DNA from: a virus
UHGV virus genome: UHGV-2203451
DNA: 37,884 nt
Strand: one strand, 5' to 3'
The position numbers are program-made. Of this stretch, positions 33,001 to 36,000 are shown in pieces (position 1 is the stretch's first letter; each line of letters opens with the position of its first letter).

Positions 33001-36000
33001 TACCTTTGAGGTACGAATAGATATGAAAAGACCGCCGGGTGGCGGTCTACAGAGGGTTGTGGCTGGATATCATGAGTAGAAGAAGTATGCCAGTTCTGCT
33101 TTTGAGCGCAGCCATTGTCTTGTTTTACAGGCTTTAAAAAGCCCATTCATCAATACTTTACCTGGCATTTTGCGCTTACCTGTTAAGTGAGTCTGGATAT
33201 AATGACTCGTCGTTCCGGCTTCCTGTGCGAAGGCTTCACGCTCATCCGGAGTAAGTGCAAGCCAGTGCTTTTTGAAATCGAAATGTCCGTTATCGCTCAT
33301 AGCTATTGCCTGATATTTATTTCAGATAATAAATATTCACCCATAAGGTAACAAAAATCAAGGATAGTTACCTATGGGGTGCATTTACCTGTTGGGTAAT
33401 ATTGCTTTAAATTGAATCATCTACTGATTCATATATGAGGCGATTTTCCAGAAAATGAAAAGTATCCAGGACGTCCGCAGGCAAAATCTCAACGACTTGA
33501 TCGACCGTGAATTCAATGGTGTTCAGACGCGGATGGCTGAAAAACTTGGAACTCAGGCAAATCTGGTAAACCGCTGGGCTCTTGGCAAGAAGGTTATCGG
33601 CGACCAGGTTGCGCGAAAAATTGAAGCTGCCGCCAATAAACCCCGTAACTGGCTTGATATCGATCGCTCGCTTTCTCAGGAAGGTTTTCAGCCTGTCGGC
33701 CCTAGCGACATTGGTCAGCTGGCGGCTCACAACCTGGAACGCTGGATGAGCGAAAGCCGCGACCTTTCAACGCAGGGAAAACTACACCGCGCATCCGGCG
33801 TCGCCCAGGTGACAATCAGCCGCCTGTTAAACAATGAGGTCAGCGTTTCCATTTCCACCCTGGAGAATGTTGCATCCGCATTCGGGCGTCACGGCTATGA
33901 ATTACTGATTCACCCGCACGACCCTGCGACCATCAACTATGATCGCTCGCGCTACGCATTGTTACCCGAAACCGAGAAAGCAAAGATCGAAAGTTACATT
34001 GAATTTGTCATCAACCAGAACGAAAAAAACAAACAATAAAATCATACTTTTCAGTAAGTAAGCCGCCTTCTGGCGGCTTTTTTATTGCCTATACTATTAC
34101 CTAATGGGTAATTTTTTTAACTCATATCTATTGACATCAAACCAAATACGCATAATTATTACCTCAACGGTAACAGACCGAGGTAACAAGTTATGCAGTG
34201 GAAAATCATCAACGGTTGGTACTGCGTTACTGCATGCGGATTCATGAGCTGGAAGTTCCGCACCTTACAGGAAGGCATTAAGTGGGCTTTCGTCAGCAAA
34301 GAAGCTCGCGATGTGGCCAACGATAACGAGATATGGGAGGGCTGATAATGAACGTTAATCAGCAGAAAAATCTTCAAAAAATCATGCTGGCATTCGACAA
34401 GGACTACAGCCTGTCAGAACAGCTATATGACCGACAAGTTGAACTGATTGAGAGTATCCGGCTTCATCAACTGGCATCAACTTTCGACGTTGTAACAGTT
34501 AAAGGCGTTCGCCAGGAAGTACTGGAGGCCGCTAAAGACAGCCCTGAGTTCGAAGAACTAATGGATGCCTACCGGCGCGAGGCAATGGCAATTATCGCCC
34601 GCTGGGATCTGGCTGATCAGATTGATGGGCAGAGGGACGCGGCATGAATCCGGGAATTTATTTCGATATCAGCAACGAGGACTACCACGCCGGTGACGGC
34701 GTGAGTAAGTCGCAGCTAGATATGGTGGCTAAGAACCCTGCCCTTCTGAAATGGGTGAAGGCTGCTCCGGAAGACGAAGAGAAGAAGTCTGCACTGGACA
34801 TGGGTACTGCTCTGCACTGTCTGCTTCTGGAACCTGGAGAGTTTGACAAACGCTTCATCGTTTCACCGAAATTCGATCGTCGGACAAAACAAGGTAAAGC
34901 TGACGAAGAGGCATTTCTTCGTGATGTAGCGGATATGGGGATTACGGTACTTGATGCCGAGCAGTGGCGGAAACTGGAGCTGATGCGTGATAGCGCAATG
35001 GCTCACCCGGCGGCACGCTGGATGCTGGAAGCACCTGGTTACTGCGAAGCATCAATGTACTGGAACGATGAAGAGACTGGTGAGTTGTGCCGCATTCGTC
35101 CAGACAAATGGCTGAACGAGCACAACGTGATCGTCGACGTGAAAAAGGTTGCAGATATGGACCGTTTTGCACGCCACATCGAGGAATTCCGCTACCACGT
35201 GCAGGACGCAATGTACCGCGAAGGCGCAATGAGGGTTACTGGTCAGCCGCATGGTTTTTTCTTTCTTGCCGTGAGCGAAAGCATTGATTGTGGTCGGTAT
35301 CCGGTACGCGTGTTCGAGCTGGATGCGCCGGATGTCGATGCCGGTCACGATCTGTTCCGCCGGGATCTGAATACCTATCACGAATGCCGCATCAACGATG
35401 AGTGGGGCGGAGTGGAAATTATTAAACGCCCTGACTGGGCACGTAAACAGGATATGTACGTATGAGCAATGATATCGCAATCACATCACAACCAGGCGCA
35501 ACTGTAGGTACTGCTGCGGCAATCTTCAGCCCGGAGGGCATGAATCAACTGGTGCGTTTCGCGGAGTTGATGTCACAAAGCAAAGCGACTGTACCGGAAC
35601 ATCTTGAAGGCAAACCTGCCGATTGTCTGGCGGTGACCATGCAGGCGGCACAGTGGGGAATGAACCCTTTCGCCGTGGCGCAGAAAACGCATGTGGTAAA
35701 CGGAAAGTTAGGCTACGAAGCACAGTTGGTAAACGCGGTCGTATCCTCTTCCAGCCTGCTAGCGACACGCCTGAATTATCGCTGGAGCGGTGACTGGTCG
35801 AATGTTAACGGCAAAACAGATAAATCACCGAATCTGACGGTAACTGTGTCAGCAGTTCTTAAAGGAGAAGCAGAACCCCGTGAGCTTACCATCAGTATGG
35901 CGCAAGCCGGAGTGCGTAACTCTCCATTGTGGGAACAGGATCCGCGCCAGCAGCTTGCCTATCTTTGCACGAAACGATGGGCTCGCCTGCACGCTCCTGA

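Follow-up and report, generated by a model that had tools for sequence, protein, structure and literature searches.

How can a temperate phage leave lysogeny when its repressor lacks the module for cleaving itself? The question is raised by a divergent gene pair in the virus genome UHGV-2203451, all 37,884 nucleotides of which form the window analysed here. A preliminary description had placed an immunity switch between positions 33301 and 34192, an interval whose ends fall exactly at the start of the cro-like gene and at the leftward operon's first gene, and had built it on a repressor (Rep) beyond the reach of RecA, with two helix-turn-helix (HTH) segments through which a monomer might read both halves of an operator. 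This analysis established the homology, the domain layout, the anatomy of operators, promoters and LexA box, and the synteny of the locus, and the region is very probably the immunity switch of a temperate podophage of the phiV10/epsilon15 type (Uetakevirus), working like the Rep–Ant switch of Salmonella phage SPC32H. Such a switch is already known: the mechanism has been solved structurally for a homologue, and the identical protein, which already carries an annotation in phiV10, has been tested in ZX5. The case carries little weight as a discovery and is of practical value for annotation.

The repressor and its second helix-turn-helix domain

Structures of SPC32H Rep alone and with its antirepressor Ant are available as PDB 5D4Z and 5D50. 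Residues 1–190 of the window's Rep align with residues 2–197 of 5D50_A (phmmer, E 4e-42), and the two proteins are 41.8% identical over 98% of the query in tblastn, the DNA-binding domain being the most conserved part (53%), followed by the C-terminal segment (45%) and the middle domain (34%). Identity to the repressor gp38 of Salmonella phage epsilon15 is 42%, and to gp40 of phiV10 and ORF21 of vB_EcoP_ZX5, both Escherichia phages, it is 100%; among the 5,426 complete genomes of E. coli, 539 contain the Rep/switch region. When ORF21 was overexpressed in the ZX5 study, no free phage was obtained and the endolysin mRNA was 99.99% lower, and that Rep represses lytic genes is supported by this literature on the identical protein.

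As had been described, the 194-residue product carries two HTH-like segments. Structure prediction, which had been named as a check, gave an all-helical AF2 model of two modules separated by a disordered linker (residues 73–84), with helices 4–19/24–31/35–43/50–59 in the N-terminal domain and HTH helices at 24–31/35–43 and 107–114/118–125. The C-terminal part has a low monomer pLDDT at residues 151–170 and then a long helix (172–193); the short beta-strands reported for the SPC32H C-terminal tetramerisation domain are not formed in this monomer model. In Foldseek, the top 12 matches were all to 5D50/5D4Z, and residues 89–190 aligned to 5D4Z (Rep 92–198) with TM scores of 0.72–0.79. Pfam matched HTH_3 (E 1.2e-09) in two stretches, the best at residues 106–147, and more weakly a YdaS/HTH (YdaS_toxin-type) domain at residues 21–61. 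Across 40 homologues, the SPC32H row being left out, the recognition-helix residues N36, R40 and W41 and the C-terminal residues Y162, L170 and F184 are invariant, and Q118, T120 and R123 of the middle domain are conserved.

A second HTH motif invites the mistaken reading that Rep has two DNA-binding domains, both of which would contact DNA within one chain so that a monomer covers both operator half-sites. The middle domain does keep the canonical HTH_3 signature along with Q118, T120 and R123, and for this reason a DNA contact by it is compatible with the sequence taken alone. The operators, however, are two-fold symmetric with identical half-sites, as would fit two copies of one domain, and when the two halves of Rep were compared for an internal duplication, no similarity between them was detectable. 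Secondary descriptions of SPC32H Rep give it a DBD–MDD–CAD architecture in which DNA binding is left to the N-terminal domain (DBD) alone, the HTH-like one in the middle mediates dimerisation, and the C-terminal one forms tetramers and provides the contact with Ant; by the same descriptions the protein binds DNA as a tetramer and weakly as a dimer, and tetrameric Ant disassembles it to dimers. A single-chain tandem reader, each domain taking one half-site, would thus be a poor description of Rep, and the monomer model is very unlikely. On the SPC32H pattern, the N-terminal HTH domain of Rep would bind DNA, the HTH_3-like domain beyond the flexible linker would serve dimerisation and not DNA reading, and the C-terminal segment would provide tetramerisation and the docking site for Ant.

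The expectation that no LexA-type protease would be present held. An S24 domain, which had been named as the finding that would speak against it, was searched for in Rep, and neither this nor a LexA-type domain was found with Pfam; an Ala-Gly or Cys-Gly dipeptide, as required for a cleavage site, is absent from the whole Rep sequence. The 86 database homologues are all short (106–235 aa, with full-length members of about 190–207 aa) and every one of them has HTH-type Pfam domains only. That Rep might nonetheless be a LexA/CI-type repressor that cleaves itself under RecA stimulation by means of a catalytic module that has escaped recognition is hardly conceivable: the only argument for it is the general prevalence of this mechanism among lambdoid phages, whereas S24 is an all-beta fold and the Rep model is entirely helical, the C-terminal region aligns over its entire length with the oligomerisation domains of 5D4Z, and the window holds a dedicated LexA-boxed ant gene. 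The S24 domain, Ser/Lys dyad and AG/CG site that mark the autocleaving LexA/CI repressors do not appear in Rep, and self-cleavage was rejected, being effectively refuted by the sequence. The view that Rep carries no autocleavage module is supported by the missing domain and dipeptide and by the predicted all-alpha fold. Without a protease domain, Rep cannot be triggered by RecA to cleave itself.

The place of rep among its operators and promoters

The rep gene lies in the position of a cI gene, divergent from the cro-like gene (PHROG 35) and flanked by the operator clusters OR and OL (Table 1). Operator-like palindromes had been noticed on both sides of it, and there are in fact three on the cro side and two on the far side; the strong terminator and the perfect TTGACA promoter that were said to follow the gene are likewise in place. 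The terminator is annotated as such in the phiV10 record, and its inverted repeat was seen here. The consensus TTACC-N5-GGTAA spans 15 bp, and exact copies occur 10 times in the window compared with 0.01 expected from shuffles. Half-sites and operator positions are the same in SPC32H, epsilon15, phiV10 and more distant family loci, and the position of OR-a in particular is conserved in SPC32H and phiV10. All the listed operators are predicted Rep sites. Rep tetramers would occupy them. The three operators between rep and cro cover PR, the leftward operon's TTGACA promoter is enclosed by the two that are 62 bp apart, and further copies are found before other transcription units across the genome.

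Table 1. Positions of the switch components, induction genes and operator-type sites in the window
Feature	Position	Strand	Remarks
Operator-type palindrome, exact	4247..4261		Tailspike–ant intergenic region; syntenic epsilon15 site annotated repressor-binding
LexA box CTGTATAAATATACAG	4301..4316		Perfect match; 21 bp upstream of ant ATG
ant	4338..4595	+	85-aa antirepressor, SPC32H Ant homologue; 5D50_E, E 4.1e-47
Operator-type palindrome, exact	5697..5711		Just upstream of isrK-like RNA
isrK-like RNA	5748–5823	+	Upstream of Bro-N/Ant gene
C4-like RNA	5848–5933	+	Upstream of Bro-N/Ant gene
37-codon leader ORF	5862–5975	+	Upstream of Bro-N/Ant gene
Bro-N/Ant fusion gene	5981..6676	+	231 aa; Pfam Bro-N; C-terminal second Ant domain (residues 150–226)
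Operator-type palindrome, exact	6743..6757		Upstream of ORF 6817–7449
Operator-type palindrome, exact	24038..24052		Upstream of portal operon; syntenic epsilon15 site annotated
Two adjacent operator-type palindromes	27231..27263		Immediately upstream of likely terS start; syntenic epsilon15 site annotated repressor-binding
Pair of exact operator-type palindromes	30992..31068		After replication genes; bracket TTGATT-17-TTTAAT promoter
cro-like gene	33070..33300	-	76 aa; divergent from rep; PHROG 35 'transcriptional repressor', E 5.6e-13
PR-like promoter, TTGTTA-17-TATTAT	33326..33354	-	For cro-like/replication operon; overlaps 33337 operator
Operator OR-a, TCACCCATAAGGTAA	33337..33351		Predicted; 1 mismatch; between -35 and -10 hexamers of PR
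Operator OR-b, TTACCTATGGGGTGC	33368..33382		Predicted; 2 mismatches
Operator OR-c, TTACCTGTTGGGTAA	33385..33399		Predicted; exact consensus; nearest to rep
rep	33455..34039	+	194 aa, stop codon included; prophage repressor, SPC32H Rep family
Rep N-terminal HTH DNA-binding domain, residues 1–72	33455..33670	+	AF2 pLDDT 83–90; role from SPC32H Rep homology
Rep middle domain, HTH_3-like fold, residues 91–152	33725..33910	+	Corresponds to SPC32H Rep dimerisation domain (MDD)
Rep C-terminal segment, residues 153–194	33911..34036	+	Corresponds to SPC32H tetramerisation/Ant-binding domain (CAD)
Intrinsic terminator after rep	34060..34087	+	8-bp stem (34060–34079), 6 G-C pairs, 4-nt loop, T-run
Operator OL-distal, TTACCTAATGGGTAA	34097..34111		Predicted; exact; centre 62 bp from OL-proximal centre
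PL-like promoter, TTGACA-17-AATTAT	34131..34159	+	For exo/recT/xis-side operon; conserved in SPC32H
Operator OL-proximal, TTACCTCAACGGTAA	34159..34173		Predicted; exact; abuts -10 hexamer, covers expected transcription start

The dispersed palindromes were rejected as a new finding, since the syntenic sites already carry the label 'protein_bind: repressor' in the GenBank entry of epsilon15. The pair that follows the replication genes has the same spacing as the OL pair, 62 bp from centre to centre, and is also found in SPC32H, epsilon15 and other family loci. The palindrome at 4247 was weighed as a control site for ant, but a TTGCAA hexamer lies immediately before it on the strand of the tailspike gene, and it may belong to the tailspike promoter instead.

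This arrangement also bears on whether the protein is an immunity repressor at all or some other XRE-type regulator or antitoxin. The identical gene of phage BP9 is annotated as 'plasmid maintenance system antidote protein VapI', and the weak YdaS_toxin-type match points the same way, but no toxin gene adjoins rep among the neighbouring ORFs, its cI position is that of a repressor, its identical counterpart in ZX5 prevents lytic growth, and the homologues are the repressors of SPC32H and epsilon15; an antitoxin role is extremely unlikely.

Two candidate routes of induction

If the immunity repressor cannot be cleaved, induction has to come from elsewhere, and the preliminary description had pointed to antirepressor genes at 4338 and 5981, rightly in both cases. 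The former, ant, encodes a protein about 87% identical to SPC32H Ant and adjoins the tailspike gene, as in SPC32H; its product is 100% identical to that of a ZX5 ORF annotated as a hypothetical protein. The perfect LexA box before it is conserved in alignments with SPC32H and phiV10. Two other CTGT-N8-ACAG matches (20025 and 24567) were not taken as LexA boxes, their spacers being G/C-rich, and a consensus scan around ant detected no promoter hexamers. SPC32H Ant is LexA-controlled according to secondary descriptions, and by analogy the window's ant would be so too. Full-length homology, domain architecture, the apparent lack of an autocleavage module, an ant gene in the same genome and a LexA box before it together point to a Rep of the SPC32H type. 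There is a gain for annotation here, as the LexA-controlled Ant of a very common group of E. coli prophages is still listed as 'hypothetical' or of 'unknown function' (PHROG 450).

From the SPC32H system we infer the following course of events. DNA damage would lead to the inactivation of host LexA and thereby free the box before ant; the 85-aa Ant would then bind the C-terminal domains of the operator-bound Rep tetramer and split it into dimers, from which the DNA would be released.

A second induction route probably exists in the Bro-N/Ant fusion, which lies behind a riboregulator of the isrK/C4 type (Rfam RF01394, 76.7 bits; RF01695, 77.7 bits). Residues 148–229 of the fusion match PHROG 450 (E 4e-36) and residues 150–226 match 5D50_E (E 1e-13), as part of a Bro-N fusion and not as a stand-alone Ant; this domain is 42% identical to the window's Ant, and the Bro-N 'anti-repressor' activity is likely owed to it. 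In Gifsy-1, the isrK-orf45-anrP cascade induces the prophage, and the module type has been described (PMC4825925). Like this cascade and c4-icd-ant of P1/P7, the window has isrK and C4 matches and a short leader ORF immediately before a Bro-N-type antirepressor gene; unlike them, its antirepressor has a C-terminal domain of the SPC32H-Ant type. PADLOC detected no defence system in Rep, the Bro-N/Ant protein or the neighbouring accessory genes.

It may be asked whether the fusion, gated by isrK/C4, is the main physiological inducer, with the small LexA-controlled Ant auxiliary or redundant. The fusion does carry an Ant domain and has the RNAs and leader ORF of the Gifsy-1 cascade upstream. It is 100% identical to ZX5 ORF4, and in the ZX5 paper, where experiments were done by overexpression and the antirepressor tested was the Bro-N/Ant fusion rather than the small Ant, overexpressed ORF4 reduced prophage counts from 1e9 to 1e6, an about 1000-fold drop in lysogeny; ZX5 lysogens spontaneously release 1e7 PFU/mL. 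Against this, the small Ant resembles the proven SPC32H Ant much more closely (about 87% versus 42% identity) and its gene keeps the LexA box, SPC32H has no annotated Bro-N gene and yet its annotated Rep–Ant pair is the published switch, and the Bro-N protein of phiV10 is a different one, only 39% identical to ZX5 ORF4, which marks the fusion as an exchangeable accessory. A leading role for the fusion is therefore unlikely.

A wider reading would take the Rep–Ant switch not for a private immunity system but for an induction network that is shared and cross-reactive; it is offered tentatively and is more doubtful than not. Among the family members examined (Rep identity 42–100%; E. coli, Salmonella and Serratia loci), the recognition-helix residues and the TTACC-N5-GGTAA half-sites are the same and the 62-bp operator pairing is conserved. 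Between the window and SPC32H, Ant is conserved to about 87% compared with 34–45% for the Rep domains that it targets, and the second Ant domain, in the Bro-N fusion, lies behind the isrK/C4 riboregulator with a predicted Rep-type operator at its promoter. Were this reading true, cross-immunity and joint induction would be expected among related prophages, the switch would respond to two inputs, the SOS response by way of LexA and a gate formed by an sRNA, and Rep-controlled expression of an antirepressor would add positive feedback.

Comparison with known systems

The closest characterised system is SPC32H Rep–Ant (Kim & Ryu 2013, J Virol; Kim et al. 2016, PNAS), with which the window shares homologous Rep and Ant, the position of the LexA box, and the gene order, rep being divergent from cro and ant beside the tailspike gene. 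The operator half-sites are the same, as are their positions at OR, at OL and at the dispersed sites. The window differs in the more G/C-rich central 5 bp of its operators and in the additional Bro-N/Ant fusion and isrK/C4 RNAs, which are not annotated in SPC32H.

In phiV10 and ZX5, Rep is essentially the same protein, and the novelty that the preliminary description had implied is forestalled by the phiV10 GenBank note, which already reads 'two helix-turn-helix motifs ... putative repressor'. The Ant and Bro-N/Ant proteins of ZX5 are also 100% identical to those of the window, and the ZX5 paper demonstrates repression experimentally; SPC32H and LexA each occur zero times in that paper. In epsilon15, the palindrome is annotated upstream of terS, upstream of gp3/portal, between ant and the tailspike gene, after the replication genes and, with three sites, at OL; this phage differs in its host and accessory genes, and its OR sites are present in the sequence but unannotated.

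With lambda CI, P22 C2 and LexA, Rep shares the cI-like place between OR and OL, divergent from cro, and the multiple operators and cooperative oligomers, but it has an all-helical C-terminal half and neither an S24 domain nor a cleavage site. The systems of coliphage 186 (Tum), Gifsy-1/3 (GfoA/GfhA) and N15 (AntC) likewise pair a non-cleavable repressor with a small protein, made under LexA repression, that inactivates it, and the likeness of the window's Ant to these proteins is functional only. SPC32H Ant has reportedly been described as structurally distinct from Tum, GfoA/GfhA and AntC. It splits the repressor tetramer, as later citing papers put it, rather than occluding the DNA-binding surface.

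The repressor and its domains

The preliminary description had proposed a repressor without autocleavage, and sequence and model point the same way: the Pfam search of the 194-aa protein (Rep) returned HTH_3 (best stretch residues 106-147) and a weak N-terminal HTH (21-61) with no S24 peptidase domain, neither an Ala-Gly nor a Cys-Gly dipeptide occurs in its sequence, and an AlphaFold2 model (40 homologues; mean pLDDT 75) was all-helical, its N-terminal HTH domain confidently modelled and set apart from another helical module by a disordered linker (73-84). All 86 homologues found in the databases are short (106-235 aa; full-length ones about 190-207 aa) and have solely HTH-type Pfam domains listed. 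Rep is 100% identical to gp40 of phiV10, whose GenBank note reads "two helix-turn-helix motifs ... putative repressor", and to ORF21 of phage vB_EcoP_ZX5 (ZX5), the overexpression of which abolished free phage and lowered endolysin mRNA by 99.99% (ZX5 paper).

Among solved structures, Rep matched over its full length the repressor of the Salmonella phage SPC32H (PDB 5D50 chain A, E 4e-42), and a C-terminal fragment matched 5D4Z. The best 12 Foldseek matches in the PDB were all chains of these two entries, followed by generic XRE-type HTH proteins and SinR. In the accounts given by later papers, SPC32H Rep consists of an N-terminal DNA-binding domain, a middle dimerisation domain and a C-terminal domain serving both Rep tetramerisation and binding of the antirepressor Ant. 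Mapped onto this order, residues ~91-152, previously described as a second HTH, would be the dimerisation domain, and residues ~153-194 would form the tetramerisation and Ant-docking segment. The conservation pattern agrees with this mapping, identity to SPC32H being highest in the DNA-binding domain (53%; C-terminal segment 45%, middle domain 34%), with the recognition-helix residues N36, R40 and W41 invariant in 40 homologues.

The suggestion that a monomer reads both half-sites through two DNA-binding domains was not borne out, since the operators have identical, symmetric half-sites, no similarity was found between the two halves of the Rep chain, and the second domain of the SPC32H homologue is described as dimerising. 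There, according to the same accounts, a tetramer reads the DNA, dimers bind weakly, and one palindrome is read by two DNA-binding domains from different dimers. The middle domain of Rep does retain a canonical HTH_3 signature, and some DNA contact through it is conceivable at very long odds; the dimerising role is the reading adopted here.

Operators across the genome

The window represents a nearly complete genome of a temperate podophage of the phiV10/epsilon15 type (genus Uetakevirus); phiV10, ZX5 and other E. coli phages are 98-99% identical to it over 33000-34400, and, among 5,426 complete E. coli genomes, 539 carry the 892-bp rep region (33301-34192) at ≥95% identity. The anatomy first described for it (ORF, Cro-like neighbour, terminator, TTGACA promoter, palindromes) was right. 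Separate overlapping genes (34644-36343) encode a 273-aa exonuclease and a 293-aa RecT, likewise in ZX5, whereas the phiV10 record has one fused 1761-bp RecE/RecT gene. The late region holds a tRNA-Arg gene (anticodon TCT, 24375-24451, +), and the SPC32H annotation has one too.

Features of the rep region, the RNA module and the operators
Feature	Position	Strand	Remarks
Cro-like gene	33070-33300	-	76 aa, divergent from rep, then replication genes
rep	33455-34039	+	ORF, 194 aa
Intrinsic terminator plus T-run	34060-34079 (hairpin)		downstream of rep
Promoter TTGACA-17-AATTAT	34131-34159		downstream of rep
Leftward-type operon			beyond rep; two small genes, exonuclease, RecT, AlpA/Xis-like gene
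isrK-like RNA	5748-5823		upstream of Bro-N/Ant gene
C4-like antisense RNA	5848-5933		upstream of Bro-N/Ant gene
37-codon leader ORF	5862-5975		ends 5 nt short of Bro-N/Ant gene
Exact palindromes	4247, 5697, 6743, 24038, 27249, 30992, 31054, 33385, 34097, 34159
1-mismatch palindromes	5572, 27231, 33000, 33337
Exact pair	34097 + 34159		around TTGACA promoter; centres 62 bp apart
Second 62-bp pair	30992/31054		around promoter, beyond replication genes
Palindrome	4247		tailspike-ant spacer
Palindrome	5697		upstream of isrK-like RNA
Palindrome	6743		upstream of ORF 6817
Palindrome	24038		upstream of portal operon
Palindromes	27231/27249		immediately 5' of likely terS start

The palindromes reported to flank rep were confirmed, both in the cro-rep spacer and around the TTGACA promoter, and their motif, TTACC-N5-GGTAA, has 10 exact copies in the window where shuffled sequences predict 0.01, preceding most transcription units genome-wide. 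The cro-rep spacer holds three copies (33337, 33368, 33385), one exact and two degenerate, the first lying within a PR-like promoter, TTGTTA-17-TATTAT. Identical half-sites occupy matching positions in SPC32H, phiV10, epsilon15 and E. coli and Serratia loci whose Rep homologues are 54-65% identical, and in the epsilon15 GenBank record the syntenic sites carry a repressor-binding annotation. The 62-bp pair spacing is kept in SPC32H, epsilon15 and the E. coli family loci (75 bp in one Serratia locus), and we infer that such pairs fit one tetramer, with four DNA-binding domains on two promoter-bracketing palindromes.

At two sites, 30992-31006 (TTACCTCAGAGGTAAATCATG) and 5572-5586 (minus strand, TTACCCTAGAGGTAGTTG), the Shine-Dalgarno sequence of the following gene lies within the palindrome, which could therefore act twice, as a DNA operator and as an mRNA hairpin sequestering that sequence. 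The long terS frame annotated in phiV10 (TTG at 27309) runs through both operator palindromes and a hairpin resembling a terminator, whereas the terS annotated in SPC32H, epsilon15 and ZX5 is shorter, with its start downstream of the palindromes; the phiV10-type start is thus probably set too far upstream (comparison over window 27225-27309 and locus L002 41-715).

Two probable antirepressors

Induction had been expected to pass through the proteins encoded at 4338 and 5981, and the analysis supports this route, both proteins carrying the corresponding domain. The 85-aa product of 4338-4595 matches SPC32H Ant (5D50 chain E, E 4e-47); its gene adjoins the tailspike gene, as in SPC32H, and a perfect LexA box, CTGTATAAATATACAG (4301-4316), lies 21 bp 5' of its ATG and aligns with the SPC32H and phiV10 counterparts. 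SPC32H Rep is said to escape cleavage during SOS, and mutation of the LexA box reportedly yields the constitutively lytic SPC32N. As later papers describe it, an Ant tetramer binds two Rep dimers, breaking the Rep tetramer, and a review names SPC32H as one of the prophages whose Ant can be made once LexA has cleaved itself, after which Ant inactivates the repressor. PHROG 450 ("unknown function") takes in SPC32H-type Ant (window 4338-4595; L004 2089-2346), which the phiV10 and ZX5 annotations label "hypothetical protein". Another match to CTGT-N8-ACAG, CTGTAAACCCGTACAG (24567-24582), is found 68 bp ahead of ORF 24650-25072; with its G/C-rich spacer it is unlikely to be a LexA site.

The product of 5981-6676, a Bro-N protein, bears a second Ant domain at its C-terminus (residues 150-226; PHROG 450) that shares 42% identity with the window's own Ant and also matches 5D50_E (E 1e-13). 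It is 100% identical to ZX5 ORF4, on overexpression of which prophage counts fell from 1e9 to 1e6; the ZX5 paper considers the Bro-N protein as the sole anti-repressor and mentions neither SPC32H nor LexA. Between ant and the RNA module upstream of the fusion gene lie two overlapping minus-strand ORFs of 203 and 151 aa (4620-5571; PHROG 1651 and 9503, function unknown), for which PADLOC gave no match; the pair looks like an inserted accessory cassette, as the corresponding gap in phiV10 measures only 313 bp.

Relation to known switches

In Rep homologues down to 42% identity (loci L003, L005-L009), N36, R40 and W41 are invariant and the operator half-sites identical; judged from these sequences, half-site recognition cannot be the basis of immunity specificity in the family. 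Cross-immunity among these prophages seems possible, and with the universal half-site and highly conserved Ant related prophages may also be co-inducible. The module at 5697-6676 is of the type of Gifsy-1 isrK-orf45-anrP and P1 c4-icd-ant, and a Rep-type palindrome abuts TTTACA, the -35-like hexamer of its predicted isrK promoter; the RNA-gated fusion may add to the LexA-controlled route. The immunity switch around Rep is itself already known, since databases already give Rep its correct function, crystal structures exist for its family both alone and in complex with the antirepressor, dispersed operators are annotated in epsilon15, and the identical protein has been shown to repress.
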